Below, piece by piece: positions 28,427-62,600 of a DNA stretch of 64,000 nt. The notes below the pieces were generated by a model. That model was not told where the DNA came from, did not search any database, and saw nothing but the letters and a program-made list of their open reading frames with translations. The translations under genes and the position numbers were made by a program. Location: positions 1 to 64,000 of the forward strand of contig JAUCBJ010008526.1 of assembly GCA_032718475.1 (NCBI GenBank). Reading direction: 5' to 3'. Origin of the DNA: Nemertoderma westbladi. Its lineage: Eukaryota; Animalia; Xenacoelomorpha. How positions within the stretch are numbered: the first letter of the stretch is position 1; each line of letters begins with the position of its first letter.

Positions 28427-28485
28427 CGTTAGATTCATTTATTATTCTAGAATAATTATACAATAATATCGACAGGTTGGTTTAC

Positions 28486-28736
28486 CTTATTTTCAACTCG
28501 TTCAGGTTTTGTAGGAAATCTTCCACCCTTTCTGCTTCTGTCACTTTCATCCAATCCAGATCGAGCCCTTGGCAATAGTGTTTACTCTTCCCTATGGTAA
28601 CCAAGGCAACGCACTCGTCGTTCTCCATAGCTTCGCTCAAGGCTTCTTGAAACCCCGCCACCCATTGGATGTTAATCAAGCATCCATCCATAGTTACTAT
28701 GGCTACACCATTGTCAAACGTAACAGTAAATCCCAT
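28486..28736 (-). CDS. Exon of a crotonase-superfamily enoyl-CoA delta-isomerase/hydratase-like gene (N-terminal part)
   Basis: MGFTVTFDNGVAIVTMD...ALVTIGKSKHYCQGLDLDWM matches the crotonase N-terminus, including the oxyanion-hole xGxDL motif. Ends at a phase-2 donor AG|GTAAAC (28486/28485). A pyrimidine-rich acceptor TTCACTCTTAG lies 11 nt before the ATG (exon start 28747). Confidence 0.85.
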
Positions 28737-29805: not shown

Positions 29806-30005
29806 AGGTTTTTCATTGGGTCGGCCAGACAATTGAACCGAATAGAAGCGGTGTCTAGGAGTCCCATTTACAGTCACTTCCAGGAGACCCTTCAAGGGAC
29901 GTCTATTATTCGCGCCTTCAAATCCACAGAAACATTCAGTATGCAGACCCGCAAGTTAATTGATGGCAATATTGATTGTATTTACCCGTATCAGACAATA
30001 AACAG
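29806..30005 (+). CDS. ABCC/MRP1-like ABC transporter, internal exon (TMD2)
   Basis: TTGCAG| acceptor and |GTGAG donor, 200 bp. RFFIGSARQLNRIEAVSRSPIYSHFQETLQG matches the MRP RQLKRLESVSRSPVYSHF motif. Confidence 0.95.
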
Positions 30006-30368: not shown

Positions 30369-31382
30369 TGTCCAAGATTTGGAAGTCACACAGAATACGT
30401 CGGAAACTTAAGGTCCGATTATTTAGAGCAGCAGTTGTTTATGTTATCCTCTATGCGAGTCCATGCTTGGCTCTAACTGCTGAGGACACCAAATCTCTAG
30501 ATTATAACTTCAGGGATAATGACTGTAGAAAGGGTCTAATGCCACGGTTAACAAAAACAGTTTCTACATATTTATATGGCCATTTCATCCTCGCCTCACG
30601 GACGTCTTCAGTAAATAAATTAAAATAACATTAAAACACAATTTATAAACCTAAACCATCATATTAAATTGAACGTACGGTACAACCAATTATTATGCCA
30701 CCAAATTCCGATATAGACAGTATGATAGGATGTATTAGATTAACATATTTAGATACTGTATAATACTGTATGTAGGCCTAGAGATAGAATTGTAGGCTAC
30801 ATGTGTTGTTAAGGTATTAGTCGTTCAACTGTTAAAAATTTAAAAATAAAAAATAAAAATAAAAATAAAAAGGGTGCTAAATGAAGAGGTGTAAAAAGGG
30901 TGGGTAACGTTAAAACCATTAAATGATTAAAAATTGTTAAAAAATTTTGGTTCCAATATTAAGTCGTTGAATTAGAAATTTATAAATAAAAGTGAGGCTG
31001 GTAAAAGGGTAAAAAAATTCTAAAAAAATGTTGGTTCTGAAATAAAAAATCATTAAAAAATATATTTAAAAGAAGGGAAAGAATACCTAAGCCATGAGCT
31101 GCATAAAATTGAGGGGGATAAAAGGACACATATTACTGTTACTAAATAAAAGGAATCCCTACAAGATTACATGTTACAATTTTTAAAAAAGTAGCTGTAA
31201 TAATTACGAAGCAACATGCGTCCAGCAATTTCGTAACCACCAGCGTCGTATTCATACTGAAGCATTACTCATTAATTGCCACCGCCCACCCCTCAATAAA
31301 CTGGTACCACTTCTATAGAATGAAACTTCGACCCGATGGCTCGCCCCCACCTAACATTTGGATGTAACAAACTCACACCACC

Positions 31383-31989: not shown

Positions 31990-33170
31990 TAACCTGCTCC
32001 TTTCCCTGATTTGGTAAAGTGACTGTTTATTGTTTTGGTTAGAAAATCCGGACTTAACCTGCTCCTTTCCCTCAATTAGTTAAGTGATCGTTTATTGTTT
32101 TTGTTAGAAAATCCCGCCTCTGTAACCTGCTCCTTTCCCTCAATTGGTAATGTTATCGTTTATTGTTTTGGTTAGAAAATCCCGCCTCTGTAACCTGCCC
32201 CTTTCCCTCAATTAGTTAAATGATCGTTTATTGTTTTGGTTAGAAAATCCCGCCTCTGTAACCTGCTCCTTTCCCTCAATTAGTTAAGTGATCGTTTATT
32301 GTTTTGGTTAGAAAATTCCGCCTCTGTAACCTGTCCCTTTCCCTCAATTAGTTAAATGATCGTTTATTGTTTTGGTTAGAAAATCCCGCCTCTGTAACCT
32401 GCTCCTTTCCCTCAATAAGTTAAGTGATCGTGTATTGTTTTGGTTAGAAAATCCCGCCTCTGTAACCTGCTCCTTTCCCTCAATTAGTTAAGTGATCGTT
32501 TATTGTTTTGGTTAGAAAATCCGGACTTAACCTGCTCCTTTCCCTCAATTAGTTAAGTGATCGTTTATTGTTTTGGTTAGAAAATCCCGCCTCTGTAACC
32601 TGCTCCTTTCCCTCAATTGGTAATGTTATCGTTTATTGTTTTGGTTAGAAAATCCCGTCTCTGTAACCTGCTCCTTTCCCTCAATTAGTTAAATGATCGT
32701 TTATTGTTTTGGTTAGAAAATCCCGCCTCTGTAACCTGCCCCTTTCCCTCAATTAATTAAATGATCGTTTATTGTTTTGGTTAGAAAATCCCGCCTCTGT
32801 AACCTGCTCCTTTCCCTCAATTAGTTAAGTGATCGTTTATTGTTTTGGTTAGAAAATTCCGCCTCTGTAACCTGTCCCTTTCCCTCAATTAGTTAAATGA
32901 TCGTTTATTGTTTTGGTTAGAAAATCCCGCCTCTGTAACCTGCTCCTTTCCCTCAATAAGTTAAGTGATCGTGTATTGTTTTGGTTAGAAAATCCCGCCT
33001 CTGTAACCTGCTCCTTTCCCTCAATTAGTTAAGTGATCGTTTATTGTTTTGGTTAGAAAATCCCGTCTCTGTAACCTGCTCCTTTCCCTGATTTGGTAAA
33101 GTGACTGTTTATTGTTTTGGTTAGAAAACTTGGCCTTAACCTGCTCCTTTCCATCAATTGGTAATTGTTT
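31990..33170. repeat. 68-bp tandem repeat, ~17 units, inside the foldback element
   Basis: Unit TAACCTGCTCCTTTCCCTCAATTAGTTAAGTGATCGTTTATTGTTTTGGTTAGAAAATCCCGCCTCTG. A 65-bp variant recurs at 473-bp spacing (7-mer duplication). Confidence 0.97.
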
Positions 33171-34300
33171 TTGGCTATAAAATGAGTGTTTTGCTACGTC
33201 ATGTGGTAATCAATTATCGACAACAACCACAAAATATTAAATATAGAGTCTTTTTACCACAGGCGCATATGGAAATCTATCTCATAGTCTATAAATCATG
33301 GAATCATGGAATGTTTTGGCACAGGCATAGTGAAATCAACTGTCTGACAGTCCAGAAATCAGCAGTCTGACAGTTTGAAGAAATACATACATAAAAAGTC
33401 ATTAAAAGGACAATAAAAGTCATTAAAAGGACAACAAAAATCACTGCCTTAGTATTCAATAGGAAATACCAAAACAAAAACTTTTTTAAAAATTGTAACA
33501 TGTAATCTTATAGGGATTCCTTTTATTTAGTAACAGTAATATGTGTCCTTTTATCCCCCTCAATTTTATGCAGCTCATGGCTTAGGTATTCTTTCCCTTC
33601 TTTTAAATATATTTTTTAATGATTTTTTATTTCAGAACCAACATTTTTTATAATTTTTTTACCCTTTTACCAGCCTCACTTTTATTTATAAATTTCTAAT
33701 TCAACGACTTAATATTGGAACCAAAATTTTTTAACAATTTTTAATCATTTAATGGTTTTAACGTTACCCACCCTTTTTACACCTCTTCATTTAGCACCCT
33801 TTTTATTTTTATTTTTATTTTTTATTTTTAAATTTTTAACAGTTGAACGACTAATACCTTAACAACACATGTAGCCTACAATTCTATCTCTAGGCCTACA
33901 TACAGTATTATACAGTATCTAAATATGTTAATCTAATACATCCTATCATACTGTCTATATCGGAATTTGGTGGCATAATAATTGGTTGTACCGTACGTTC
34001 AATTTAATATGATGGTTTAGGTTTATAAATTGTGTTTTAATGTTATTTTAATTTATTTACTGAAGACGTCCGTGAGGCGAGGATGAAATGGCCATATAAA
34101 TATGTAGAAACTGTTTTTGTTAACCGTGGCATTAGACCCTTTCTACAGTCATTATCCCTGAAGTTATAATTATGGATACGCCACGAACGGCATCATTTCG
34201 ACTACTTTCCCATTTAATTATAAATCTCTAGATGGCACATTCACAAGAATGCTACGTCGGGTTCATTGTGTCAAGTACAATGCACACATCTCCAATCAGA

Positions 34301-35577: not shown

Positions 35578-35704
35578 ATGGCTGTCATACCGTATTGAAT
35601 TCATTGGGAATCTCATCATTGTTGCTTCTGCCTTATTCGCTGTGGCTTCCAAAGAATCTCTGGGTCCTGCATTAGTTGGTCTATCCGTTCAGTTCGCAAT
35701 GAGT
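35578..35704 (+). CDS. ABCC/MRP1-like transporter exon (last TM helices); not in the ORF track
   Basis: CCGTAG| ... |GTGAGT, 127 bp, phase matches the previous exon. Translates (R)WLSYRIEFIGNLIIVASALFAVASKESLGPALVGLSVQFAMS. Confidence 0.95.
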
Positions 35705-35847: not shown

Positions 35848-36102
35848 ATCACTCAATCATTGGGTTTCATGGTTCGAATGTTCTCAGAAATGGAGGCGAA
35901 TATCGTAGCCGTAGAGCGAATCAAAGAGTACGGGGAGTTGGAGGCGGAAGCTGATTGGTCCTCCCCCGGGACGGATTCCCAGCTGGCAGCTGATTGGCCG
36001 AACTATGGACGTATTGAAATGAAAGATTTGTGTGTCCGTTACAGGGACGGGATGGAATTAGCGTTGAAAAACATTACCCTAACGGTTGAACCGGGAGAGA
36101 AG
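35848..36102 (+). CDS. ABCC/MRP1-like transporter exon (TMD2-NBD2 linker)
   Basis: TTTTAG| ... AAG|GTTAGT, 255 bp. ITQSLGFMVRMFSEMEANIVAVERIKEY...WPNYGRIEMKDLCVRYRDGMELALKNITLTVEPGEK. Confidence 0.96.
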
Positions 36103-39053
36103 GTTAGTTAATCTAATGGTTGAACTGGGAGAGAAGGTTAGTTAATCTAACGGTTGAACCGGGAGAGAAGGTTTTGTTAATCTAATGGTTGAACCGGGAG
36201 AGAAGGTTAGTTAATCTAATGGTTGAACTGGGAGAGAAGGTTAGTTAATCTAACGGTTGAACGGGAGAGAAGGTTAGTTAATCTAACGGTTGAACGGGAG
36301 AGAAGGTTAGTTAATCTAATGGTTGAACTGAGAGAGAAGGTTAGTTAATCTAACGGTTGAACGGGAGAGAAGGTTAGTTAATCTAACGGTTGAACCGGGA
36401 GAGAAGGTTAGTTAATCTAACGGTTGAACCGGGAGAGAAGGTTAGTTAATCTAATGGTTGAACTGGGAGAGAAGGATAGTTAATCTAACGGTTGAACTGG
36501 GGGAGAAGGTTAGTTAATCTAACGGTTGAACTGGGAGAGAAGGTTAGTTAATCTAACGGTTGAACGGGAGAGAAGGTTAGTTAATCTAACGGTTGAACGG
36601 GAGAGAAGGTTAGTTAATCTAACGGTTGAACTGGGAGAGAAGGTTAGTTAATCTAACGGTTGAATGGGAGAGAAGGTTAGTTAATCTAACGGTTGAACGG
36701 GAGAGAAGGTTAGTTAATCTAACGGTTGAACTGGGAGAGAAGGTTAGTTAATCTAACGGTTGAACTGGGGGAGAAGGTTAGTTAATCTAACGGTTGAACG
36801 GGAGAGAAGGTTAGTTAATCTAACGGTTGAACCGGGAGAGAAGGTTAGTTAATCTAATGGTTGAACTGGGAGAGAAGGATAGTTAATCTAACGGTTGAAC
36901 TGGGGGAGAAGGTTAGTTAATCTAACGGTTGAACTGGGAGATAAGGTTAGTTAATCTAACGGTTGAACGGGAGAGAAGGTTAGTTAATCTAACGGTTGAA
37001 CCGGGAGAGAAGGTTAGTTAATCTAATGGTTGAACTGGGAGAGAAGGATAGTTAATCTAACGGTTGAACTGGGGGAGAAGGTTAGTTAATCTAACGGTTG
37101 AACTGGGAGATAAGGTTAGTTAATCTAACGGTTGAACGGGAGAGAAGGTTAGTTAATCTAACGGTTAAACCGGGAGAGAAGGTTAGTTAATCTAATGGTT
37201 GAACCGGGAGAGAAGGTTAGTTAATCTAATGGTTGAACTGGGAGAGAAGGATAGTTAATCTAACGGTTGAACTGGGGGAGAAGGTTAGTTAATCTAACGG
37301 TTGAACCGAGAGAGAAGGTTAGTTAATCTAACGGTTGAACGGGAGAGAAGGTTAGTTAATCTAACGGTTGAACCGGGAGAGAAGGTTAGTTAATCTAACG
37401 GTTGAACCGGGAGAGAAGGTTAGTTAATCTAATGGTTGAACTGGGAGAGAAGGATAGTTAATCTAACGGTTGAACTGGGGGAGAAGGTTAGTTAATCTAA
37501 CGGTTGAACCGAGAGAGAAGGTTAGTTAATCTAACGGTTGAACGGGAGAGAAGGTTAGTTAATCTAACGGTTGAACCGGGAGAGAAGGTTAGTTAATCTA
37601 ACGGTTGAACCGGGAGAGAAGGTTAGTTAATCTAATGGTTGAACTGGGAGAGAAGGATAGTTAATCTAACGGTTGAACTGGGGGAGAAGGTTAGTTAATC
37701 TAACGGTTGAACCGAGAGAGAAGGTTAGTTAATCTAACGGTTGAACGGGAGAGAAGGTTAGTTAATCTAACGGTTGAACCGGGAGAGAAGGTTAGTTAAT
37801 TTAACGGTTGAACTGGGAGAGAAGGTTAGTTAATCTAATGGTTGAACTGGGAGAGAAGGTTAGTTAATCTAACGGTTGAACCGAGAGAGAAGGTTAGTTA
37901 ATCTAACGGTTGAACGGGAGAGAAGGTTAGTTAATCTAACGGTTGAACCGGGAGAGAAGGTTAGTTAATCTAACGGTTGAACTGGGAGAGAAGGTTAGTT
38001 AATCTAACGGTTGAACCGAGAGAGAAGGTTAGTTAATCTAACGGTTGAACGGGAGAGAAGGTTAGTTAATCTAACGGTTGAACCGGGAGAGAAGGTTAGT
38101 TAATCTAACGGTTGAACTGGGAGAGAAGGTTAGTTAATCTAACGGTTGAACCGAGAGAGAAGGTTAGTTAATCTAACGGTTGAACGGGAGAGAAGGTTAG
38201 TTAATCTAACGGTTGAACCGGGAGAGAAGGTTAGTTAATCTAATGGTTGAACTGGGAGATAAGGTTAGTTAATCTAACGGTTGAACTGGGAGAGAAGGTT
38301 AGTTAATCTAATGGTTGAACTGGGGGAGAAGGTTAGTTAATCTAACGGTTGAACCGAGAGAGAAGGTTAGTTAATCTAACGGTTGAACGGGAGAGAAGGT
38401 TAGTTAATCTAACGGTTGAACCGGGAGAGAAGGTTAGTTAATCTAACGGTTGAACTGGGAGAGAAGGTTAGTTAATCTAACGGTTGAACCGAGAGAGAAG
38501 GTTAGTTAATCTAACGGTTGAACGGGAGAGAAGGTTAGTTAATCTAACGGTTGAACCGGGAGAGAAGGTTAGTTAATCTAATGGTTGAACTGGGAGAGAA
38601 GGATAGTTAATCTTATGGTTGAACTGGGAGAGAAGGTTAGTTAATCTAACGGTTGAACTGGGGGAGAAGGTTAGTTAATCTAACGGTTGAACTGGGAGAG
38701 AAGGTTAGTTAATCTAACGGTTGAACTGGGAGAGAAGGATAGTTAATCTAACGGTTGAACCGGGAGAGAAGGTTAGTTAATCTAACGGTTGAACCGGGAG
38801 AGAAGGTTAGTTAATCTAACGGTTGAACGGGAGAGAAGGTTAGTTAATCTAACGGTTGAACTGGGAGAGAAGGATAGTTAATCTAACGGTTGAACTGGAG
38901 GAGAAGGTTAGTTAATCTAACGGTTGAACTGGGAGAGAAGGATAGTTAATCTAACGGTTGAACCGGGAGAGAAGGTTAGTTAATCTAATGGTTGAACTGA
39001 GAGAGAAGGTTAGTTAATCTAACGGTTGAACCGGGAGAGAAGGTTAGTTAATC
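36079..39053 (+). repeat. 34-bp tandem array, ~88 units, CTAACGGTTGAACCGGGAGAGAAG|GTTAGTTAAT; the first unit overlaps the ABCC exon end and donor
   Basis: Directly visible. Unit 1 is exon nt 36079-36102 plus intron nt 36103-36112. Confidence 0.99.
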
Positions 39054-39410
39054 CCCTTCTACCCCTTCCCTGCCTATTCGATTATTTCCACTCTATATTT
39101 TCCCATACACCTACGTACCTTTCCCCCCATCTACCCCTCTACTTTACCCACTGTCGTTCCCCTCTATCTTCCACCCCATACACCCCCCCCCCCCCCCCCC
39201 CCTCTATAATTCCAGATCTACCCCATACATCCCCCTCTGCCGCCACCCCCCCCCCCCCCCCCATCATGTCTCACGTTCCCCTTTTATTTTTGCACACCAC
39301 ACCAACTTTCCATTCTTTATTTCCCCCATCCCTTCTATATTACCACCCCCCCCCCCCCTTCCTTCTATATTTCCCCGATCCCATCTATATCCCCCCCCCC
39401 CCCACCCCCA
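39054..39410. repeat. C-rich low-complexity block with several poly-C runs before the Walker A exon
   Basis: Four runs of roughly 13-20 C in an otherwise pyrimidine-rich tract. Confidence 0.9.
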
Positions 39411-39413
39411 TAG

Positions 39414-39782
<369 letters not shown>

Positions 39783-40492: not shown

Positions 40493-40960
<468 letters not shown>

Positions 40961-41187: not shown

Positions 41188-43944
41188 GGACTCGCCCTCG
41201 CGTCAGCAGATGATAGTGGTAATGGTGGAATTGGTCTATTGATGAATCCAACTGCACATGCAGCATTGGACAAAATAGACCAAACTTCTAACCGCATCAT
41301 CTGTTGCCACTTCTCATGTTCTGGAAGACTGGCTAAGAAGTTTCCTAAGGTGGTTCTGATTGTGTGCTACTCTCCAACTAGTGTTGCCCCTGTAGAGGAG
41401 GTGGACAATTTCTACCACAATCCACAAGCAGCTACTCTAAGCAGAGACTTTAATGCAATTCCGCATCAATGACCTACATTACCCTGGGTCTATAGCGATA
41501 GTGTTAACCGAAATTCCGTACATCTTCAGAATATTATATCTGGAAATGGATTGTTTTCGGTTGGAACCCAGTTCAAGAAGCGAACTGGAAAGCTATGGAC
41601 TCATAGTGGAGCCAGTGGTCACAAGTCCCAGATAGACAATATTCTGTTTCGTAGGAAATACAGGAGCTCTATACAAGACTAATGCATTTACACTTCGACC
41701 CTTCTCCAGTGATCATCGCCTTATTGTGGCCAAGGTAAGACTTAGTCTGCGTGCTAGCAGAACGAAATCTGCCTTGCCGCGGCATGACTGGTCCTCTCTG
41801 TTGCAACAGCCAAGCAACTGAGCAACAAGTATGATGTTCTTGCCTCTGATGCGGCAGATCACTGTGAGGGCTATACTGCCTTCGCAGAAGCAGTTAAGTT
41901 AGCAGCTGCAGAAACAGTTCCTGTATACCCTCGAAACAGGAAAAGTGCCCCCTGGACTGACAACAAAATGCAGAAGTGCCGAAATGACCTATATAAGGCG
42001 CAGAAAGAGTCCCGACTCAAACAGACTACAGCGGCCAAGAATGCAGTTAAGGCTGCAGCTAGGCCCCTGAACAGACAGTACTCTGTTAATCTACAGGAGC
42101 TAATAAACCAACAGGTTGATGCCATCAATGATGCTGACGACAGCAGGCAATCATCCCAGGCATGGAAATCGAACAACTTGCTTACTGGGCTGAAAAGCCA
42201 ACCAACCACCAAGGTTAAGGCTGAATCACCAGACGATCGCCTCAATGGTTGGAAGGCCCACTTTGAAAAGCTCCTCAATAATGACAGGGTATTGCCTGAT
42301 AACGTTATAGAAGTAAAAGTGTCTGAGTCTGTACTCCCAGATATTCCCATTGACGATATCTCATTTACAGAAGTGAGGGCTGCTGCAAAGAGCATTAAGA
42401 CGAATCGTGCCAGTGGATTAGATGGTGTTCCCCCTGAGGTCTTTAAAATACCTGAGTGTTTAAAGCTCATCTATCCCATCATAGTAGACATGTACCGAAC
42501 AACAAGAGTCCCACAAGAAATGAAAACAAATAAGTTGGTGCCAGTTCCCAAGAAGGGCAACCTAACACTCTATGGTTCTTTTCGGGGAATCTCATTGATC
42601 TCGATTGCTGCAAAGCTATACAATAGAATTCTATTAAATCGCATCAGGGATCCCATTGAGAGACTACTCCGTGGAAATCAGAATGGGTTCCGTAAAGGTC
42701 GTGGGACCATGGAGCCCATTTTGGCACTTAGAAGGATAATTGAAGAGTTATCAAAAAAGAAAGTCAGGCATCTGGCTGTTATCTTTGTTGACTTCTTCCA
42801 GGCCTTTGATTCAGTCTCTCGCTCACGTATGTTCAGCATACTTTCATTATATGGGATTCCTGATGAAATTATTGCAGCAATCAGATCAGTATACGATGGT
42901 TCGACAACATTTGTGTCTACTGTTGACGGTGACACAGAACCATTTGAAGTGTTATGGGGCGTCCTCCAGGGAGACACACTTGCACCATTCTTGTTCATAA
43001 TTGTTGTTGACTATGTTCTACGCATGTCCTTAGATCATCATAATGATGATGGGGTGATGATAACTCCACCTACTGGCTCCAGAAGTCGAGGAAATCCTGC
43101 TAAGTACCTAACTGATCTAGACTTTGCTGATGACTTAGGAGTACTCTCAGAATCACTAGAGGGAGCCCAACGGCTCCTCAGCTCATTAGAACATGCTGCT
43201 TCTAGTGTTGGTCTTTTTATTAACTCCAGAAAGACCAAAATTTTGACAGTTAACTTTGAAAGTCCTCAGCAAGTCTCTGATCGGATGAGCATAAGCTCAA
43301 AGGATGGTATGCTTGAGCATGTGGACGACTTCTGTTACCTGGGATCATGGATCCGGAAGTCAGGTGAGGACCTTCGAATACGTAAGGGAAAGGCATGGGC
43401 AGCCTTGAATAGGCTTTCCAGGATTTGGAAGTCACCGAGAATTAATCGGAAACTTAAGGTCCGATTATTTAGAGCAGCAGTAGTTCCAGTACTCCTCTAT
43501 GGGAGTCCATGCTGGGCTCTAACTGCTGAGGACACTAGATCTCTGGATGGTACATTCACAAGAATGCTACGCCGGGTTCATTTTGTCAAGAATAATGCAC
43601 ACATCTCCAACCAGACACTATATAACATTGGAGGAGTCTCATTGCTTCCCCCAAGCTTGACACTAGAACAAAATCACCTCCGCTTTGCAGGACATTGATT
43701 TCGCCGTGAGGACCAGCCAGTGCATAATCTTGTACTTTGGCACCCCCCATGGAGTGAATTAGCATGGTGGACAGCTCATGACTTTCTTGAGACGCATCGT
43801 AAAGGACACTGGCCTTGAAGATGCGGATGATCTAGCAAATGTCATGGGTGATAAGGAGTTGTGGCGGCGCAATTTTGTCGACAAGCCGGCACAGCATTCT
43901 TAAAAATGCAGCTGCAATGCAGCATGCCGATCCTAGTAGTAGTA
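41188..43944 (+). mobile_element. 5'-truncated RTE-clade non-LTR retrotransposon
   Basis: Frameshifted APE endonuclease motifs (GGIGLL, VCYSPT, DFNA, SQID, SDHRL), an RT domain, a (TAG)4 tail, and a 13-bp TSD GTCGAGCGAACTC at 41175-41187 and 43945-43957. Confidence 0.93.
41968..43698 (+). pseudogene. RTE reverse transcriptase ORF remnant
   Basis: Motifs PVPKKG, FRGISL, QNGFRKGR, FVDFFQAFDSV, QGDTLAP, FADD and FCYLGS. TGA at 43696 replaces the TGC (GHC) seen in the other copy near 35210, and the upstream endonuclease part is frameshifted. Confidence 0.9.
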
Positions 43945-46766: not shown

Positions 46767-46917
46767 GATTATCGTGCTAGACTTCGGGGAGGTGGTGCAG
46801 ATGGGAACCCCTTCTGAACTTCTCGCTGAGGATGGGGGCCACTTCTGGGGAATGGCTGAGGCTGCCGGATTAGTTTCATTGGCTGGTCCATCCGAGACTC
46901 GAGGTCGGGTAGACTAG
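46767..46917 (+). CDS. ABCC/MRP1-like transporter terminal coding exon; not in the ORF track
   Basis: TTGCAG| acceptor, phase matches. (R)IIVLDFGEVVQMGTPSELLAEDGGHFWGMAEAAGLVSLAGPSETRGRVD then TAG. Confidence 0.93.
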
Positions 46918-47825: not shown

Positions 47826-50800
47826 CGTGGTAGAATGATGTAGACGTGGTAGAATGATGGAGACGTGGTAGAATCATGGAGACGTGGTAGAATGATGGAG
47901 ACGTGGTAGAATCATGGAGACGTGGTAGAATGATGGAGACGTGGTAGAATGATGGAGACGTGGTAGAATGATGGAGACGTGGTAGAATGATGGAGACGTG
48001 GTAGAATCATGGAGACGTGGTAGAATGATGGAGACGTGGTAGAATGATGGAGACGTGGTAGAATGATGTAGACGTGGTAGAATGATGTAGACGTGGTAGA
48101 ATGATGGAGACGTGGTAGAATCATGGAGACGTGGTAGAATCATGGAGACGTGGTAGAATGATGGAGACGTGGTAGAATCATGGAGACGTGGTAGAATGAT
48201 GGAGACGTGGTAGAATGATGGAGACGTGGTAGAATGATGGAGACGTGGTAGAATGATGGAGACGTGGTAGAATCATGGAGACGTGGTAGAATGATGGAGA
48301 CGTGGTAGAATCATGGAGACGTGGTAGAATGATGGAGACGTGGTAGAATGATGGAGACGTGGTAGAATGATGGAGACGTGGTAGAATCATGGAGACGTGG
48401 TAGAATGATGGAGACGTGGTAGAATGATGGAGACGTGGTAGAATGATGTAGACGTGGTAGAATGATGTAGACGTGGTGGAATGATGGAGACGTGGTAGAA
48501 TCATGGAGACGTGGTAGAATCATGGAGACGTGGTAGAATGATGGAGACGTGGTAGAATCATGGAGACGTGGTAGAATGATGGAGACGTGGTAGAATGATG
48601 GAGACGTGGTAGAATGATGGAGACGTGGTAGAATGATGGAGACGTGGTAGAATCATGGAGACGTGGTAGAATGATGGAGACGTGGTAGAATGATGGAGAC
48701 GTGGTAGAATCATGGAGACGTGGTAGAATCATGGAGACGTGGTAGAATGATGGAGACGTGGTAGAATGATGGAGACGTGGTAGAATGATGGAGACGTGGT
48801 AGAATGATGGAGACGTGGTAGAATGATGGAGACGTGGTAGAATCATGGAGACGTGGTAGAATGATGGAGACGTGGTAGAATGATGGAGACGTGGTAGAAT
48901 GATGGAGACGTGGTAGAATGATGGAGACGTGGTAGAATCATGGAGACGTGGTAGAATGATGGAGACGTGGTAGAATGATGAAGACGTGGTAGAATGATGG
49001 AGACGTGGTAGAATGATGGAGACGTGGTAGAATGATGGAGACGTGGTAGAATGATGGAGACGTGGTAGAATGATGGAGACGTGGTAGAATGATGGAGACG
49101 TGGTAGAATGATGGAGCGTGGTAGAATGATGTAGACGTGGTAGAATGATGGAGACGTGGTAGAATGATGGAGACGTGGTAGAATCATGGAAACGTGGTAG
49201 AATCATGGAGGCGTGGTAGAATGATGGAGACGTGGTAGAATGATGTAGACGTGGTAGAATGATGGAGACGTGGTAGAATGATGTAGACGTGGTAGAATGA
49301 TGGAGACGTGGTAGAATGATGGAGACGTGGTAGAATGATGTAGACGTGGTAGAATGATGGAGACGTGGTAGAATGATGGAGACGTGGTAGAATCATGGAA
49401 ACGTGGTAGAATCATGGAGGCGTGGTAGAATGATGGAGACGTGGTAGAATGATGGAGACGTGGTAGAATGATGGAGACGTGGTAGAATGATGGAGACGTG
49501 GTAGAATCATGGAGACGTGGTAGAATCATGGAGACGTGGTAGAATCATGGAGGCGTGGTAGAATGATGTAGACGTGGTAGAATGATGGAGACGTGGTAGA
49601 ATGATGTAGACGTGGTAGAATGATGGAGACGTGGTAGAATGATGGAGACGTGGTAGAATCATGGAGGCGTGGTAGAATGATGGAGACGTGGTAGAATGAT
49701 GAAGACGTGGTAGAATGATGGAGACGTGGTAGAATGATGAAGACGTGGTAGAATGATGTAGACGTGGTAGAATGATGGAGACGTGGTAGAATGATGGCGA
49801 CGTGGTAGAATGATGGAGACGTGGTAGAATGATGGAGACGTGGTAGAATCATGGAGACGTGGTAGAATCATGGAGACGTGGTAGAATGATGGAGACGTGG
49901 TAGAATGATGGAGACGTGGTAGAATGATGGAGACGTGGTAGAATGATGGAGACGTGGTAGAATGATGGAGACGTGGTAGAATCATGGAGACGTGGTAGAA
50001 TGATGGAGACGTGGTAGAATGATGGAGACGTGGTAGAATGATGGAGACGTGGTAGAATGATGGAGACGTGGTAGAATCATGGAGACGTGGTAGAATGATG
50101 GAGACGTGGTAGAATGATGGAGACGTGGTAGAATGATGGAGACGTGGTAGAATGATGGAGACGTGGTAGAATGATGGAGACGTGGTAGAATGATGGAGAC
50201 GTGGTAGAATGATGGAGACGTGGTAGAATGATGGAGACGTGGTAGAATGATGGAGCGTGGTAGAATGATGTAGACGTGGTAGAATGATGGAGACGTGGTA
50301 GAATGATGGAGACGTGGTAGAATCATGGAAACGTGGTAGAATCATGGAGGCGTGGTAGAATGATGGAGACGTGGTAGAATGATGTAGACGTGGTAGAATG
50401 ATGGAGACGTGGTAGAATGATGTAGACGTGGTAGAATGATGGAGACGTGGTAGAATGATGGAGACGTGGTAGAATGATGTAGACGTGGTAGAATGATGGA
50501 GACGTGGTAGAATGATGGAGACGTGGTAGAATCATGGAAACGTGGTAGAATCATGGAGGCGTGGTAGAATGATGGAGACGTGGTAGAATGATGGAGACGT
50601 GGTAGAATGATGGAGACGTGGTAGAATGATGGAGACGTGGTAGAATCATGGAGACGTGGTAGAATCATGGAGACGTGGTAGAATCATGGAGGCGTGGTAG
50701 AATGATGTAGACGTGGTAGAATGATGGAGACGTGGTAGAATGATGTAGACGTGGTAGAATGATGGAGACGTGGTAGAATGATGGAGACGTGGTAGAATCA

Positions 50801-53800
50801 TGGAGGCGTGGTAGAATGATGGAGACGTGGTAGAATGATGAAGACGTGGTAGAATGATGGAGACGTGGTAGAATGATGAAGACGTGGTAGAATGATGTAG
50901 ACGTGGTAGAATGATGGAGACGTGGTAGAATGATGGCGACGTGGTAGAATGATGGAGACGTGGTAGAATGATGAAAACGTGGTAGAATCATGGAGGCGTG
51001 GTAGAATGATGGAGACGTGGTAGAATGATGGAGACGTGGTAGAATGATAGAGACGTGGTAGAATGATGGAGACGTGGTAGAACATGGAGACGTGGTAGAA
51101 TCATGGAGGCGTGGTAGAATCATGGAGACGTGGTAGAATCATGGAGGCGTGGTAGAATCATGGAGGCGTGGTAGAATCATGGAGACGTGGTAGAATCATG
51201 GAGGCGTGGTAGAATGATGGAGACGTGGTAGAATGATGGAGACGTGGTAGAATGATGGAGACGTGGTAGAATGATGTAGACGTGGTAGAATGATGGAGAC
51301 GTGGTAGAATCATGGAGGCGTGGTAGAATGATGGAGACGTGGTAGAATCATGGAGACGTGGTAGAATGATGGAGACGTGGTAGAATCATGGAGACGTGGT
51401 AGAATGATGGAGACGTGGTAGAATGATGGAGACGTGGTAGAATGATGGAGACGTGGTAGAATGATGGAGACGTGGTAGAATGATGGAGACGTGGTAGAAT
51501 GATGTAGACGTGGTAAAATGATGGAGACGTGGTAGAATCATGGAGGCGTGGTAGAATGATGGAGACGTGGTAGAATCATGGAGACGTGGTAGAATCATGG
51601 AGACGTGGTAGAATGATGGAGACGTGGTAGAATCATGGAGACGTGGTAGAATGATGGAGACGTGGTAGAATCATGGAGACGTGGTAGAATGATGGAGACG
51701 TGGTAGAATGATGGAGACGTGGTAGAATCATGGAGACGTGGTAGTATCATGGAGACGTGGTAGAATGATGGAGACGTGGTAGAATCATGGAGACGTGGTA
51801 GAATGATGGAGACGTGGTAGAATGATGGAGACGTGGTAGAATGATGGAGACGTGGTAGAATCATGGAGACGTGGTAGAATCATGGAGACGTGGTAGAATC
51901 ATGGAGGCGTGGTAGAATGATGGAGACGTGGTAGAATGATGGAGACGTGGTAGAATGATGTAGACGTGGTAGAATGATGGAGACGTGGTAGAATGATGGA
52001 GACGTGGTAGAATGATGTAGACGTGGTAGAATGATGGAGACGTGGTAGAATGATGGAGACGTGGTAGAATCATGGAAACGTGGTAGAATCATGGAGGCGT
52101 GGTAGAATGATGGAGACGTGGTAGAATGATGGAGACGTGGTAGAATGATGGAGACGTGGTAGAATGATGGAGACGTGGTAGAATCATGGAAACGTGGTAG
52201 AATCATGGAGGCGTGGTAGAATGATGGAGACGTGGTAGAATGATGTAGACGTGGTAGAATGATGGAGACGTGGTAGAATGATGTAGACGTGGTAGAATGA
52301 TGGAGACGTGGTAGAATGATGGAGACGTGGTAGAATGATGTAGACGTGGTAGAATGATGGAGACGTGGTAGAATGATGGAGACGTGGTAGAATCATGGAA
52401 ACGTGGTAGAATCATGGAGGCGTGGTAGAATGATGGAGACGTGGTAGAATGATGGAGACGTGGTAGAATGATGGAGACGTGGTAGAATGATGGAGACGTG
52501 GTAGAATCATGGAGACGTGGTAGAATCATGGAGACGTGGTAGAATCATGGAGGCGTGGTAGAATGATGTAGACGTGGTAGAATGATGGAGACGTGGTAGA
52601 ATGATGTAGACGTGGTAGAATGATGGAGACGTGGTAGAATGATGGAGACGTGGTAGAATCATGGAGGCGTGGTAGAATGATGGAGACGTGGTAGAATGAT
52701 GAAGACGTGGTAGAATGATGGAGACGTGGTAGAATGATGAAGACGTGGTAGAATGATGTAGACGTGGTAGAATGATGGAGACGTGGTAGAATGATGGCGA
52801 CGTGGTAGAATGATGGAGACGTGGTAGAATGATGAAAACGTGGTAGAATCATGGAGGCGTGGTAGAATGATGGAGACGTGGTAGAATGATGGAGACGTGG
52901 TAGAATGATAGAGACGTGGTAGAATGATGGAGACGTGGTAGAACATGGAGACGTGGTAGAATCATGGAGGCGTGGTAGAATCATGGAGACGTGGTAGAAT
53001 CATGGAGGCGTGGTAGAATCATGGAGGCGTGGTAGAATCATGGAGACGTGGTAGAATCATGGAGGCGTGGTAGAATGATGGAGACGTGGTAGAATGATGG
53101 AGACGTGGTAGAATGATGGAGACGTGGTAGAATGATGTAGACGTGGTAGAATGATGGAGACGTGGTAGAATCATGGAGGCGTGGTAGAATGATGGAGACG
53201 TGGTAGAATCATGGAGACGTGGTAGAATGATGGAGACGTGGTAGAATCATGGAGACGTGGTAGAATGATGGAGACGTGGTAGAATGATGGAGACGTGGTA
53301 GAATGATGGAGACGTGGTAGAATGATGGAGACGTGGTAGAATGATGGAGACGTGGTAGAATGATGTAGACGTGGTAAAATGATGGAGACGTGGTAGAATC
53401 ATGGAGGCGTGGTAGAATGATGGAGACGTGGTAGAATCATGGAGACGTGGTAGAATCATGGAGACGTGGTAGAATGATGGAGACGTGGTAGAATCATGGA
53501 GACGTGGTAGAATGATGGAGACGTGGTAGAATCATGGAGACGTGGTAGAATGATGGAGACGTGGTAGAATGATGGAGACGTGGTAGAATCATGGAGACGT
53601 GGTAGTATCATGGAGACGTGGTAGAATGATGGAGACGTGGTAGAATCATGGAGACGTGGTAGAATGATGGAGACGTGGTAGATTGATGGAGACGTGGTAG
53701 AATGATGGAGACGTGGTAGAATCATGGAGACGTGGTAGAATCATGGAGACGTGGTAGAATCATGGAGGCGTGGTAGAATGATGGAGACGTGGTAGAATGA

Positions 53801-56191
53801 TGGAGACGTGGTAGAATGATGGAGACGTGGTAGAATCATGGAGACGTGGTAGAATCATGGAGACGTGGTAGAATCATGGAGACGTGGTAGAATGATGGAG
53901 ACGTGGTAGAATGATGGAGACGTGGTAGAATGATGGAGACGTGGTAGAATCATGGAGACGTGGTAGTATCATGGAGACGTGGTAGAATGATGGAGACGTG
54001 GTAGAATCATGGAGACGTGGTAGAATGATGGAGACGTGGTAGAATGATGGAGACGTGGTAGAATCATGGAGACGTGGTAGAATGATGGAGACGTGGTAGA
54101 ATGATGGAGACGTGGTAGAATCATGGAGACGTGGTAGTATCATGGAGACGTGGTAGAATGATGGAGACGTGGTAGAATCATGGAGACGTGGTAGAATGAT
54201 GTAGACGTGGTAGAATGATGGAGACGTGGTAGAATGATGTAGACGTGGTAGAATGATGGAGACGTGGTAGAATGATGGAGACGTGGTAGAATGATGGAGA
54301 CGTGGTAGAATCATGGAGGCGTGGTAGAATGATGGAGACGTGGTAGAATCATGGAGACGTGGTAGAATGATGGAGACGTGGTAGAATCATGGAGACGTGG
54401 TAGAATGATGGAGACGTGGTAGAATCATGGATACGTGGTAGAATGATGGAGACGTGGTAGAATGATGGAGACGTGGTAGAATGATGGAGACGTGGTAGAA
54501 TGATGGAGACGTGGTAGAATGATGGAGACGTGGTAGAATGATGGAGACGTGGTAGAATGATGGAGACGTGGTAGAATGATGGAGACGTGGTAGAATGATG
54601 GAGACGTGGTAGAATGATGTAGACGTGGTAGAATGATGGAGACGTGGTAGAATGATGGAGACGTGGTAGAATGATGGAGACGTGGTAGAATGATGTAGAC
54701 GTGGTAGAATGATGGAGACGTGGTAGAATGATGTAGACGTGGTAGAATGATGGAGACGTGGTAGAATGATGGAGACGTGGTAGAATGATGGAGACGTGGT
54801 AGAATGATGGAGACGTGGTAGAATGATGTAGACGTGGTAGAATGATGGAGACGTGTAGAATGATGGAGACGTGTAGAATGATGGAGACGTGGTAGAATCA
54901 TGGAGACGTGGTAGAATGATGGAGACGTGGTAGAATGATGGAGACGTGGTAGAATCATGGAGACGTGGTAGAATCATGGAGACGTGGTAGAATGATGGAG
55001 ACGTGGTAGAATCATGGAGACGTGGTAGAATGATGGAGACGTGGTAGAATCATGGAGACGTGGTAGAATGATGGAGACGTGGTAGAATGATGGAGACGTG
55101 GTAGAATGATGGAGACGTGGTAGAATGATGGAGACGTGGTAGAATGATGGAGACGTGGTAGAATGATGGAGACGTGGTAGAATCATGGAGACGTGGTAGA
55201 ATCATGGAGACGTGGTAGAATGATGGAGACGTGGTAGAATCATGGAGACGTGGTAGAATGATGGAGACGTGGTAGAATCATGGAGACGTGGTAGAATCAT
55301 GGAGACGTGGTAGTATCATGGAGACGTGTAGAATGATGGAGACGTGTAGAATGATGGAGACGTGGTAGAATCATGGAGACGTGGTAGAATGATGGAGACG
55401 TGGTAGAATGATGGAGACGTGGTAGAATCATGGAGACGTGGTAGAATCATGGAGACGTGGTAGAATGATGGAGACGTGGTAGAATCATGGAGACGTGGTA
55501 GAATGATGGAGACGTGGTAGAATCATGGAGACGTGGTAGAATGATGGAGACGTGGTAGAATCATGGAGACGTGGTAGAATGATGGAGACGTGGTAGAATC
55601 ATGGAGACGTGGTAGAATCATGGAGACGTGGTAGAATGATGGAGACGTGGTAGAATGATGGAGACGTGGTAGAATGATGGAGACGTGGTAGAATGATGGA
55701 GACGTGGTAGAATGATGGAGACGTGGTAGAATGATGGAGACGTGGTAGAATCATGGAGACGTGGTAGAATGATGGAGACGTGGTAGAATGATGTAGACGT
55801 GGTAGAATGATGGAGACGTGGTAGAATGATGGAGACGTGGTAGAATGATGTAGACGTGGTAGAATGATGGAGACGTGTAGAATGATGGAGACGTGGTAGA
55901 ATCATGGAGACGTGGTAGAATGATGGAGACGTGGTAGAATGATGGAGACGTGGTAGAATCATGGAGACGTGGTAGAATGATGGAGACGTGGTAGAATGAT
56001 GGAGACGTGGTAGAATGATGGAGACGTGTAGAATGATGGAGACGTGGTAGAATCATGGAGACGTGGTAGAATGATGGAGACGTGGTAGAATGATGGAGAC
56101 GTGGTAGAATGATGGAGACGTGGTAGAATGATGGAGACGTGGTAGAATGATGGAGCGTGGTAGAATGATGTAGACGTGGTAGAGTGATGGA
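47826..56191. repeat. 19-bp satellite, ~440 units, GACGTGGTAGAATGATGGA
   Basis: Directly visible, with higher-order periods of 1139 and 1861 bp. Confidence 0.99.
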
Positions 56192-56663: not shown

Positions 56664-59600
56664 ATGGCATACATTTAGTATCAATATTCAATAATTTAAT
56701 TAATACGAGTCCGATATTATTGATCGTTTTAAATGATTTTTGCAATGCTGAATTATTTCGATTGATATTATTGATCGATTTAAATAACAGTTGACTTATT
56801 TCAACCGATAATTATAGGTCGTATTAAATGTAGCTATTATTTCAGCTGATCTCGTGATGATTAACTTATCTGATTCTATCATAGCTATGGATTCTATACA
56901 TGCTTCACTACCGTACTGGTACCACTGTGCACTGTACAGCTGTACAGCTATACAGCTGTACCAGTACTTAATTCAGTATCTGAGTCAGCTGATCACTTTA
57001 AATCGATCTATAATTTTAGGTGGAAATAATTCACTGTCAGCTGATCACATTTAATACGATCTATAATTTTAGGTGAAAATAATTCACTGTCAGCTGATCA
57101 TATTTAATACGACCTATAATTTTAGGTGGAAATAATTCACTGTCAGCTGATCACTTTTAATACGACCTATAATTTTAGGTGGAAATAATTCACTGTCAGT
57201 TGATCACATTTAATACGACCTATAATTTTAGGTGGAAATAATTCACTGTCAGTTGATCACATTTAATACGACCTATAATTTTAGGTGGAAATAATTCACT
57301 GTCAGCTGATCACATTTAATACGACCTATAATTTTAGGTGAAATAATTCACTGTCAGCTGATCACATTTAATACGACCTATAATTTTAGGTGGAAATAAT
57401 TCACTGTCAGCTGATCACATTTAATACGACCTATAATTTTAGGTGGAAATAATTCACTGTCAGCTGATCACATTTAATACGACCTATAATTTTAGGTGGA
57501 AATAATTCACTGTCAGCTGATCACATTTAATACGACCTATAATTTTAGGTGGAAATAATTCACTGTCAGCTGATCACATTTAATACGACCTATAATTTTA
57601 GGTGGAAATAATTCACTGTCAGCTGATCAAATTTAATACGACCTATAATTTTAGGTGGAAATAATTCACTGTCAGCTGATCACTTTTAATACGACCTATA
57701 ATTTTAGGTGGAATTAATTCACTGTCAGCTGATCACATTTAATACGACCTATAATTTTAGGTGGAAATAATTCACTGTCAGCTGATCACATTTAATACGA
57801 CATATAATTTTAGGTGGAAATAATTCACTGTCAGCTGATCACATTTAATACGACCTATAATTTTAGGTGGAAATAATTCACTGTCAGCTGATCAAATTTA
57901 ATACGACCTATAATTATAGGTGGAAATAATTCACTGTCAGCTGATCACATTTAATACGACCTATAATTTTAGGTGGAAATAATTCACTGTCAGCTGATCA
58001 CATTTAATACGACCTATAATTTTAGGTGGAAATAATTCACTGTCAGCTGATCACATTTAATACGACCTATAATTTTAGGTGGAAATAATTCACTGTCAGC
58101 TGATCACTTTTAATACGACCTATAATTTTAGGTGGAAATAATTCACTGTCAGCTGATCAAATTTAATACGACCTATAATTTTAGGTGGAAATAATTCACT
58201 GTCAGCTGATCACATTTAATACGACCTATAATTTTAGGTGGAAATAATTCACTGTCAGCTGATCACTTTTAATACGACCTATAATTTTAGGTGGAAATAA
58301 TTCACTGTCAGTTGATCACATTTAATACGACCTATAATTTTAGGTGGAAATAATTCACTGTCAGCTGATCACATTTAATACGACCTATAATTTTAGGTGG
58401 AAATAATTCACTGTCAGCTGATCACATTTAATACGACCTATAATTTTAGGTGGAAATAATTAACTGTCAGCTGATCACTTTTAATACGACCTATAATTTT
58501 AGGTGGAAATAATTCACTGTCAGTTGATCACATTTAATACGATCTATAATTTTAGGTGGAAATAATTCACTGTCAGCTGATCACTTTTAATACGACCTAT
58601 AATTTTAGGTGGAAATAATTCACTGTCAGCTGATCACATTTAATACGACCTATAATTTTAGGTGGAAATAATTAACTGTCAGCTGATCACTTTTAATACG
58701 ACCTATAATTTTAGGTGGAAATAATTCACTGTCAGCTGATCACATTTAATACGACCTATAATTTTAGGTGGAAATAATTAACTGTCAGCTGATCACATTT
58801 AATACGACCAATAATTATAGGTGGAAATAATTCACTGTCAGCTGATCAAATTTAATACGACCTATAATTTTAGGTGGAAATAATTCACTGTCAGCTGATC
58901 AAATTTAATACGACCTATAATTTTAGGTGGAAATAATTCACTGTCAGCTGATCACATTTAATACGACCTATAATTTTAGGTGGAAATAATTCACTGTCAG
59001 CTGATCACATTTAATACGACCTATAATTTTAGGTGGAAATAATTCACTGTCAGCTGATCAAATTTAATACGACCTATAATTTTAGGTGGAAATAATTCAC
59101 TGTCAGCTGATCACATTTAATACGACCTATAATTTTAGGTGGAAATAATTCACTGTCAGCTGATCACATTTAATACGACCTATAATTTTAGGTGGAAATA
59201 ATTCACTGTCAGCTGATCACATTTAATACGACCTATAATTTTAGGTGGAAATAATTCACTGTCAGCTGATCAAATTTAATACGACCTATAATTTTAGGTG
59301 GAAATAATTCACTGTCAGCTGATCACTTTTAATACGACCTATAATTTTAGGTGGAATTAATTCACTGTCAGCTGATCACATTTAATACGACCTATAATTT
59401 TAGGTGGAAATAATTCACTGTCAGCTGATCACATTTAATACGACCTATAATTTTAGGTGGAAATAATTCACTGTCAGCTGATCACATTTAATACGACCAA
59501 TAATTTTAGGTGGAAATAATTCACTGTCAGCTGATCACATTTAATACGACCTATAATTTTAGGTGGAAATAATTCACTGTCAGCTGATCACATTTAATAC

Positions 59601-62600
59601 GACCTATAATTTTAGGTGGAAATAATTCACTGTCAGCTGATCACATTTAATACGACCTATAATTTTAGGTGGAAATAATTCACTGTCAGCTGATCAAATT
59701 TAATACGACCTATAATTTTAGGTGGAAATAATTCACTGTCAGCTGATCACATTTAATACGACCTATAATTTTAGGTGGAAATAATTCACTGTCAGCTGAT
59801 CACATTTAATACGACCTATAATTTTAGGTGGAAATAATTCACTGTCAGCTGATCACATTTAATACGACCTATAATTTTAGGTGGAAATAATTCACTGTCA
59901 GCTGATCACATTTAATACGACCTATAATTTTAGGTGGAAATAATTCACTGTCAGCTGATCACATTTAATACGACCTATAATTTTAGGTGGAAATAATTCA
60001 CTGTCAGCTGATCACATTTAATACGACCAATAATTTTAGGTGGAAATAATTCACTGTCAGCTGATCACATTTAATACGACCTATAATTTTAGGTGGAAAT
60101 AATTCACTGTCAGCTGATCACATTTAATACGACCTATAATTTTAGGTGGAAATAATTCACTGTCAGCTGATCACATTTAATACGACCTATAATTTTAGGT
60201 GGAAATAATTCACTGTCAGCTGATCACATTTAATACGACCTATAATTTTAGGTGGAAATAATTCACTGTCAGCTGATCACATTTAATACGACCTATAATT
60301 TTAGGTGGAAATAATTCACTGTCAGCTGATCACATTTAATACGACCTATACTTTTAGGTGGAAATAATTCACTGTCAGCTGATCACATTTAATACGACCT
60401 ATAATTTTAGGTGGAAATAATTCACTGTCAGCTGATCACATTTAATACGACCTATAATTTTAGGTGGAAATAATTCACTGTCAGCTGATCACATTTAATA
60501 CGACCAATAATTTTAGGTGGAAATAATTCACTGTCAGCTGATCACATTTAATACGACCTATAATTTTAGGTGGAAATAATTCACTGTCAGCTGATCACAT
60601 TTAATACGACCTATAATTTTAGGTGGAAATAATTCACTGTCAGCTGATCACATTTAATACGACCAATAATTTTAGGTGGAAATAATTCACTGTCAGCTGA
60701 TCACATTTAATACGACCTATAATTTTAGGTGGAAATAATTCACTGTCAGCTGATCACTTTTAATACGACCTATAATTTTAGGTGGAAATAATTAACTGTC
60801 AGCTGATCACATTTAATACGACCTATAATTTTAGGTGGAAATAATTCACTGTCAGCTGATCACATTTAATACGACCTATAATTTTAGGTGGAAATAATTC
60901 ACTGTCAGCTGATCACATTTAATACGACCTATAATTTTAGGTGGAAATAATTCACTGTCAGCTGATCACATTTAATACGACCTATAATTTTAGGTGGAAA
61001 TAATTCACTGTCAGCTGATCACTTTTAATACGACCTATAATTTTAGGTGGAAATAATTAACTGTCAGCTGATCACATTTAATACGACCTATAATTTTAGG
61101 TGGAAATAATTCACTGTCAGCTGATCACATTTAATACGACCTATAATTTTAGGTGGAAATAATTCACTGTCAGCTGATCACATTTAATACGACCTATAAT
61201 TTTAGGTGGAAATAATTCACTGTCAGCTGATCACATTTAATACGACCTATAATTTTAGGTGGAAATAATTCACTGTCAGCTGATCACATTTAATACGACC
61301 TATAATTTTAGGTGGAAATAATTCACTGTCAGCTGATCACATTTAATACGACCAATAATTTTAGGTGGAAATAATTCACTGTCAGCTGATCACATTTAAT
61401 ACGACCTATAATTTTAGGTGGAAATAATTAACTGTCAGCTGATCACATTTAATACGACCAATAATTTTAGGTGGAAATAATTCACTGTCAGCTGATCACA
61501 TTTAATACGACCTATAATTTTAGGTGGAAATAATTCACTGTCAGCTGATCACATTTAATACGACCTATAATTTTAGGTGGAAATAATTCACTGTCAGCTG
61601 ATCACATTTAATACGACCAATAATTTTAGGTGGAAATAATTCACTGTCAGCTGATCACATTTAATACGACCTATAATTTTAGGTGGAAATAATTAACTGT
61701 CAGCTGATCACATTTAATACGACCAATAATTTTAGGTGGAAATAATTCACTGTCAGCTGATCACATTTAATACGACCTATAATTTTAGGTGGAAATAATT
61801 CACTGTCAGCTGATCACATTTAATACGACCTATAATTTTAGGTGGAAATAATTCACTGTCAGCTGATCACATTTAATACGACCTATAATTTTAGGTGGAA
61901 ATAATTCACTGTCAGCTGATCACATTTAATACGACCTATAATTTTAGGTGGAAATAATTCACTGTCAGCTGATCACATTTAATACGACCTATAATTTTAG
62001 GTGGAAATAATTAACTGTCAGCTGATCACATTTAATACGACCTATAATTTTAGGTGGAAATAATTCACTGTCAGCTGATCACATTTAATACGACCTATAA
62101 TTTTAGGTGGAAATAATTCACTGTCAGCTGATCACATTTAATACGACCTATAATTTTAGGTGGAAATAATTCACTGTCAGCTGATCACATTTAATACGAC
62201 CAATAATTTTAGGTGGAAATAATTCACTGTCAGCTGATCACATTTAATACGACCTATAATTTTAGGTGGAAATAATTCACTGTCAGCTGATCACATTTAA
62301 TACGACCTATAATTTTAGGTGGAAATAATTCACTGTCAGCTGATCACATTTAATACGACCTATAATTTTAGGTGGAAATAATTCACTGTCAGCTGATCAC
62401 ATTTAATACGACCTATAATTTTAGGTGGAAATAATTCACTGTCAGCTGATCACATTTAATACGACCTATAATTTTAGGTGGAAATAATTCACTGTCAGCT
62501 GATCACATTTAATACGACCTATAATTTTAGGTGGAAATAATTCACTGTCAGCTGATCACATTTAATACGACCAATAATTTTGGGTGGAAATAATTCACTG

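Follow-up and report, generated by a model that had tools for sequence, protein, structure and literature searches.

A minisatellite of 88 units built from the exon end and splice donor of an ABCC-like transporter gene

An intron of an ABCC gene carries an array of 88 head-to-tail units (36079..39052, plus strand), in which each unit repeats 24 nt of the end of the preceding exon, encoding LTVEPGEK, and 10 nt of intron including the 5' splice donor. The array was found in the window, the whole stretch of 64,000 nucleotides that was analysed. By analogy with published systems, it is best explained, with a probability of roughly 0.78, as a neutral minisatellite that started by chance on a donor and is tolerated, with the first donor being used.

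Anatomy of the array and of the gene around it

The repeat was reported by TRF at 36079-39053 (period 34, 88.0 copies, 94% matches), and unit-by-unit parsing of 36079-39052 returned 88 units of 33-35 bp, as anticipated by the sequence-only reading, which had described an ABCC exon end and donor amplified about 88-fold. Unit 88 stops at 39052 (exact match at 39019-39052), and base 39053 belongs to the flank. Units of 34 bp were counted 68 times, units of 33 bp 19 times and a unit of 35 bp once; 19 of the 88 are identical to unit 1, counting the first and the last. With up to three mismatches allowed, 68 matches were obtained in the real sequence and 0 in 100 shuffles; the remaining 20 units are those of 33 and 35 bp, which are missed by an ungapped search.

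Unit 1 (36079..36112, plus strand) comprises the 24 exon and 10 intron nucleotides, with the donor AAG/GTTAGT (the slash marking the exon-intron boundary) at 36102/36103 and an in-frame TAA at 36109-36111. The same donor is present in 77/88 units, including unit 2, the first competitor of donor 1. Unit 3 has AAG/GTTTTG, and in 10/88 units (12, 24, 29, 35, 41, 47, 75, 79, 83 and 85) the donor is AAG/GATAGT, with GT changed to GA; the earlier description of a majority with intact donors and a minority with GA thus agrees with the counts. GT, and with it the AG/GT junction, is kept in 78/88 units. The bases 5' of the 24-nt unit core are unique to the exon at donor 1 and are GTTAGTTAAT at later donors. 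Compared with the commonly given donor consensus, the array donor matches at 7/11 positions and the other donors of the gene at 6-10, and GTTA also begins two of these others; because of this shared range and shared start, the array donor is, judged by its sequence, an ordinary donor for the gene.

Unit 88 (39019..39052, plus strand), identical to unit 1, abuts a unique intron tail of 361 nt (39053..39413, plus strand; 80% pyrimidine, 52% C, two AG dinucleotides), which ends in the acceptor TAG at 39411-39413. A 154-nt contig from sequencing run X1 runs from unit 88 into the tail. With one unit the intron would measure 371 nt, and with the array it measures 3311 nt. The tail contains long C runs. 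In the folding prediction its first part pairs with the purine-rich unit 88, the donor of which was the least accessible among those reported.

Six ABCC exons were located on the plus strand between 29806 and 46917, all with AG and GT ends, and when joined they give 417 codons without an internal stop, in line with the earlier remark that the flanking exons look intact. The first exon found in the window (29806..30005) belongs to TMD2 (Pfam ABC_membrane, E 1.9e-05, below the curated cut-off; open frame), as does the exon at 35578..35704, placed by tblastn and the joined frame. The exon ending in LTVEPGEK (35848..36102) has 255 nt and phase 0 at both ends, and the exon part of the unit corresponds to its last 24 nt. 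Downstream of the array, the exon at 39414..39739 (326 nt) encodes the Walker A motif (GRTGAGKS) and Q-loop of NBD2 (Pfam ABC_tran, E 2e-11; PDB ABCC2, E 5e-49; MRP1, E 1e-43), and its best structure matches are ABCC2, ABCC1 and ABCC3. The exon at 40738..40932 contributes the last part of the signature motif together with Walker B and the H-loop (Pfam search and joined frame), and the last coding exon at 46767..46917 closes with the stop TAG at 46915-46917.

Among 120 homologues fetched, the best shared 61% identity over 404 aa with the joined product. Named matches among the best 120 listed were mostly animal MRP1/ABCC2 proteins, at identities of 78% or less. All NBD2 motifs are present (Walker A, Q-loop, signature, Walker B and H-loop), and on this sequence evidence the gene is provisionally classed as ABCC1/2/3-like (long MRP), a type that also has TMD0, TMD1 and NBD1. 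The window covers only the 3' quarter of the gene, which is putatively functional on that part; searches with five homologues located no exon 5' of homologue residue ~1100-1150 within the window. In these searches positions 1-29805 yielded no ABCC exon, so that the gene either has a preceding intron of more than 29.8 kb or is a 3' fragment.

The acceptor at 39413/39414 is correct. Joining 36102 to 39414 keeps the reading frame, and in the two alignments inspected the joined product is collinear with homologues and the EK/IGIV junction is free of gaps. On the strength of this homology unit 1 is taken to span an authentic exon-intron boundary; both the parsing and the joined frame bear out the proposal that it is the real exon end plus donor from which the array derives. 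Read-through past donor 1 encodes V-S-stop (GTT AGT TAA), and the TAA at 36109-36111 truncates the protein four residues before the start of Walker A, as had been claimed. Use of any later donor likewise brings an in-frame TAA ahead of the NBD2 Walker A and leaves three junctions 3' of that stop. By the usual junction rule, such transcripts would be subject to NMD. From the sequence, donor 1 would thus be the only productive donor, and here too the earlier claim stood.

The array in sequencing reads and its turnover

Contigs were compared with units 87-88 plus the intron tail, the 3' edge of the array, in 4 of 8 runs, and 23 of 52 records were inspected. Five of the 8 runs listed contain the stretch and none is on record as RNA, which has no bearing on expression or donor use. 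Runs X1, X2 and X4 represent two samples, either of which is possibly the assembly source, and their support is read-level and does not come from independent individuals. Among the records inspected, the depth of unit contigs reached 106 in X1 (unique tail, 11.9), 75 in X2 and 235 in X4, with unit contigs at depth 48-235 over the three runs. The 33-bp unit variant was present in all three, and unit-to-unit joins were seen in contigs. The array is real in the DNA, because short-read contigs show its units at high depth; the length of 88 units is the assembled figure. Contig depth is no copy number, and with that proviso the depth in X4 was even when set against assembly k-mer multiplicities (~5-6 per assembled copy, four contigs), and two contigs in X1 stood at 8.9x and 6.7x tail depth, against ~18x and ~17x expected from the assembly. 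This shortfall may reflect unequal alleles, another individual or coverage bias. For run X3, which belongs to a different sample and study, 0 contigs matched units 87-88 plus the intron tail, a zero that can be false. Its word share of 0.63 is close to the fraction of query 31-mers that lie inside an exon (322/503 = 0.64), and X3 may be a spliced-RNA run filed as DNA.

The string of unit types is organized in higher-order blocks of four to six units (FCEBAA twice plus FCEBA, FCKBA/FCKBN, and DEBA four times), and periods of 169 and 203 were also reported by TRF in the array. Blocks of this kind would be the usual mark of unequal exchange and, with the variants shared between units, are signs of repeat turnover. 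The 14 variant rows were reduced to 12 distinct changes, one row being a boundary artefact and two a single event in unit 3. Two of the 12 fall in the donor 9-mer, against 3.2 expected (9 of 34 positions), and one of them in GT. The GA variant occurs in 10 units, and the common variants outside the donor in 10, 10, 17, 19 and 39. C>T changes at CpG sites account for the two most frequent substitutions (17 and 39 units); this pattern suggests free mutation of methylated DNA and is a hint of gene-body methylation. The changes look neutral, the donor being neither protected nor preferentially destroyed, with the little power that 12 changes give. Selection against donor copies was rejected, no signal being seen among these changes.

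Donor choice, known systems and competing explanations

Exon-intron-boundary minisatellites are an already published class, of which the ABCC array is one further, fairly long example, and as it stands it matters little beyond that. By its sequence it has the donor-minisatellite or 'mirage' anatomy (head-to-tail units, a first unit across the boundary, a reiterated donor and turnover). The 37-bp VNTR in intron 7 (IVS7) of human F7 is an exon-intron-boundary repeat for which the same anatomy is described, and 6-16/IFI6, CBS intron 13, LMNB2 and PDGF intron 4 are placed alongside it (PMC1557585, sections consulted). As in the ABCC array, the first unit of this class lies across the boundary, an identical donor is reiterated and the unit is of similar size. 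The ABCC array differs, as far as those sections go, in copy number (88, against 5-9 in F7 and 10-26 in other members) and in the exon nucleotides of its unit (24, against 4 in F7). Its host is non-mammalian-looking, and its donor use is a prediction, whereas that of F7 was measured. In the same sections, F7, LMNB2 and PDGF are described as splicing from the first donor only, and 6-16 and CBS as adding two proximal donors to it; F7 minigenes with 1-12 monomers kept an unchanged donor choice, always the first, and inactivation of F7 donors shifted splicing to the next donor or led to skipping (PMC1557585). With its 77 identical donors, far above the 12 copies tested in F7 minigenes, the ABCC array could serve as a natural test of whether the first donor is selected.

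A 25-bp VNTR of 12-427 units in intron 18 of human ABCA7 starts with the donor GT; use of the second donor, with retention of one unit, amounts to ~2% and is unaffected by VNTR size, and under cycloheximide the rise of stop-carrying transcripts is unrelated to length. Between the longest and shortest alleles, skipping of the next exon is up 3.2-fold and expression down 33%, and these length effects were observed at 200-400 units (PMC5954066, sections consulted). On the same partial account, ABCA7 resembles the ABCC array in being an ABC transporter with a repeat that holds a donor, adjoins a nucleotide-binding-domain exon and reaches a large copy number, and its second-donor use leads to a stop and NMD, the outcome that would be expected of the ABCC array from its sequence. 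The ABCA7 unit begins at GT and has no copy of the exon end, whereas the ABCC unit copies 24 nt of it; for ABCA7 there are measurements of how length varies and how this affects splicing and expression, whereas both would be putative in the ABCC array. With ABCA7 reaching 427 units, the ABCC array is not the longest known.

The amphioxus 'mirages' of Adh3, the globins BflGb6 and BflGb9, troponin C and PGBD5 are reported, in the sections consulted, not to disturb splicing (PMC3087553, PMC3902484). They too consist of an invertebrate exon-intron boundary copied in tandem in the manner of a minisatellite, with many splice signals kept and signs of turnover; copies number 3-6 in the globin mirages, against 88 in the ABCC array, and length instability is demonstrated in the mirages and hinted at in the ABCC array. 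Narrow literature searches of incomplete coverage, from which absence is not implied, returned no length-tuned NMD case and no U1-decoy minisatellite. The sections consulted of PMC10078293 contained no case of this exon-end/donor repeat anatomy.

The neutral minisatellite would likely have arisen from a single chance 34-bp duplication across the exon end and donor of an ABCC1/2-like gene, and its growth would likely have been by ordinary repeat turnover, as in neighbouring arrays. Four other minisatellites were reported by TRF in the window, with units of 36 bp x 730 (2013-28274), 68 bp x 17 (31990-33159), 19 bp x 441 (47826-56191) and 53 bp x 121 (56984-63397). Large tandem arrays, including the ABCC array and a CATA run, make up 71% of the window, and these four touch no ABCC exon; expansion is therefore a property of the region. 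The array is likely harmless, as the donor furthest upstream would be the one chosen by the spliceosome, and a choice of donor 1 by position is what human F7, ABCA7, CBS and 6-16 and the amphioxus genes would lead one to expect. At most a few percent of transcripts would leak to donor 2 or 4, carrying a stop with three junctions downstream, so that NMD would remove them; since competition would be confined to the nearest donors, the size of this leak would be independent of copy number. Both donor choice and NMD are inferred here from mammals and amphioxus, and the models themselves call for caution: in the sections consulted, F7 was tested to 12 copies only, 6-16 and CBS use two extra donors, and ABCA7 length is not neutral for expression and next-exon skipping.

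Splicing mechanisms were also examined in silico. Folding predictions at three window sizes placed donor 1 at ranks 64, 23 and 27 among 78 donors in accessibility. Hairpin masking, by pairing of GTTAG with CTAAC of the next unit, was rejected as a donor discriminator; donor 1 is predicted to be no more accessible than the copies, and structure would therefore not select it. Masking of the C-rich acceptor by the purine-rich units was rejected as well, the predicted accessibility of the acceptor being unchanged with 1, 3, 10 or 18 units upstream. Recursive splicing by an AG/GT ratchet was rejected on the ground that the array AG is without a pyrimidine tract: the pyrimidine fraction before it (unit 2) is 0.26, against 0.53-0.89 at six real acceptors, of which the acceptor after the array is the most pyrimidine-rich (0.89). 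According to these models, donor 1 would be singled out by position alone.

A live, if unlikely, alternative by analogy with ABCA7 is that donor 1 is used and that a long array indirectly lowers transporter dose through skipping of the Walker A exon or lower expression, as an unselected effect in cis that depends on length. The donor-containing VNTR beside a nucleotide-binding-domain exon in ABCA7 would be a precedent (PMC5954066, sections consulted), skipping of 39414-39739 shifts the frame and creates a stop that lies 147 nt 5' of the last junction, the intron grows from 371 nt with one unit to 3311 nt with the array, and the X1 depths, at about half of the expectation for a homozygous 88-unit array, are a weak hint of unequal alleles. 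However, that hint may be coverage bias, given that depth is no copy number, the effects in ABCA7 belong to the 200-400 units stated, and the acceptor is both the most pyrimidine-rich of the six and predicted to be equally open at every unit number modelled. Selected control of the efflux pump, in which downstream donors compete by number and array length sets the NMD-bound share, is very unlikely. Pseudo-donors of F7 do become functional once upstream donors are removed, and 6-16, CBS and ABCA7 make use of additional donors close to the first, but the use of downstream donors was independent of length in both tested cases, F7 and ABCA7 (PMC1557585, PMC5954066, sections consulted); nor is there a selection signal on the donor motif, and the region builds large arrays from non-exonic sequence as well. 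The tuning of productive against NMD-destined transcripts by array length, proposed in the sequence-only reading, is thus unsupported, given the constant first-donor choice in F7 at 1-12 units, the length-independent ~2% in ABCA7 and the neutral-looking changes. By analogy, a weaker form of the proposal survives, in that long ABCA7 alleles lowered expression and raised next-exon skipping in the sections consulted.

The suggestion that the array serves as a U1 snRNP decoy also found no support. This idea, or a ladder of recursive splicing at AG/GT sites that removes the intron stepwise, is highly improbable. It would draw on the 78 GT-type donors in 3 kb, to which U1 could bind, and on CTAAC or CTAAT at the unit start in 86/88 units, a motif resembling the branch consensus and lying ~20 nt upstream of the AAG/G inside the units. 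Against it, the array donor matches the consensus at just 7/11 positions, like the other donors of the gene, and the array AG is preceded by 26% pyrimidine, against the 53-89% of real acceptors. Beside the nuclear U1 pool, 78 sites of one transcript are negligible. That the array, or most of its length, is an assembly artefact absent from the DNA is scarcely credible: the X1 depths suggest fewer copies on average than assembled, but the high-depth unit contigs of three runs, set against the X1 tail, the 33-bp variant common to these runs and the unit-to-unit joins argue otherwise, and the ordered variant blocks would be unlike collapse errors.

Set against the neutral, tolerated minisatellite, a broader reading has the array as a length-variable dial on a xenobiotic efflux pump, in which a measurable part of the transcripts of many-copy alleles ends in NMD, through donor leak or Walker A exon skipping, and ABCC dose in a wild animal follows from natural variation in repeat length. 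This reading is quite unlikely. If it were true, first-donor selection would fail at 88 copies, beyond the 12 tested in F7, and a transporter dose set by length would be a counterpart of the ABCA7 case in a non-human detoxification gene and provide a fast-mutating source of variation in efflux capacity.

Other features of the window

On the minus strand, an 84-codon ORF at 28485-28736 has an ATG start and ends at a GTAAA donor-like site. Its similarity to enoyl-CoA hydratase/crotonase is weak (Pfam ECH_1, E 0.05, below the cut-off; PDB EchA3, E 0.006); if real, the ORF would be the first exon of an antisense gene, with an intron running into the 26-kb array and possibly nested in a long ABCC intron.

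Inverted repeats at 30501-31192 and 33480-34170 flank the 68-bp array, with 527 nt complementary at 100% and 189 nt at 96%, and look like a young foldback-type element in an ABCC intron. By eye, this element apparently adjoins fragments of the LINE at 41-44 kb. The latter is represented on the plus strand by a 636-codon ORF (41788-43698) with a reverse transcriptase domain (RVT_1, E 4e-28), a LINE-like retroelement in the last ABCC intron, of which the upstream part lies outside the same open frame.
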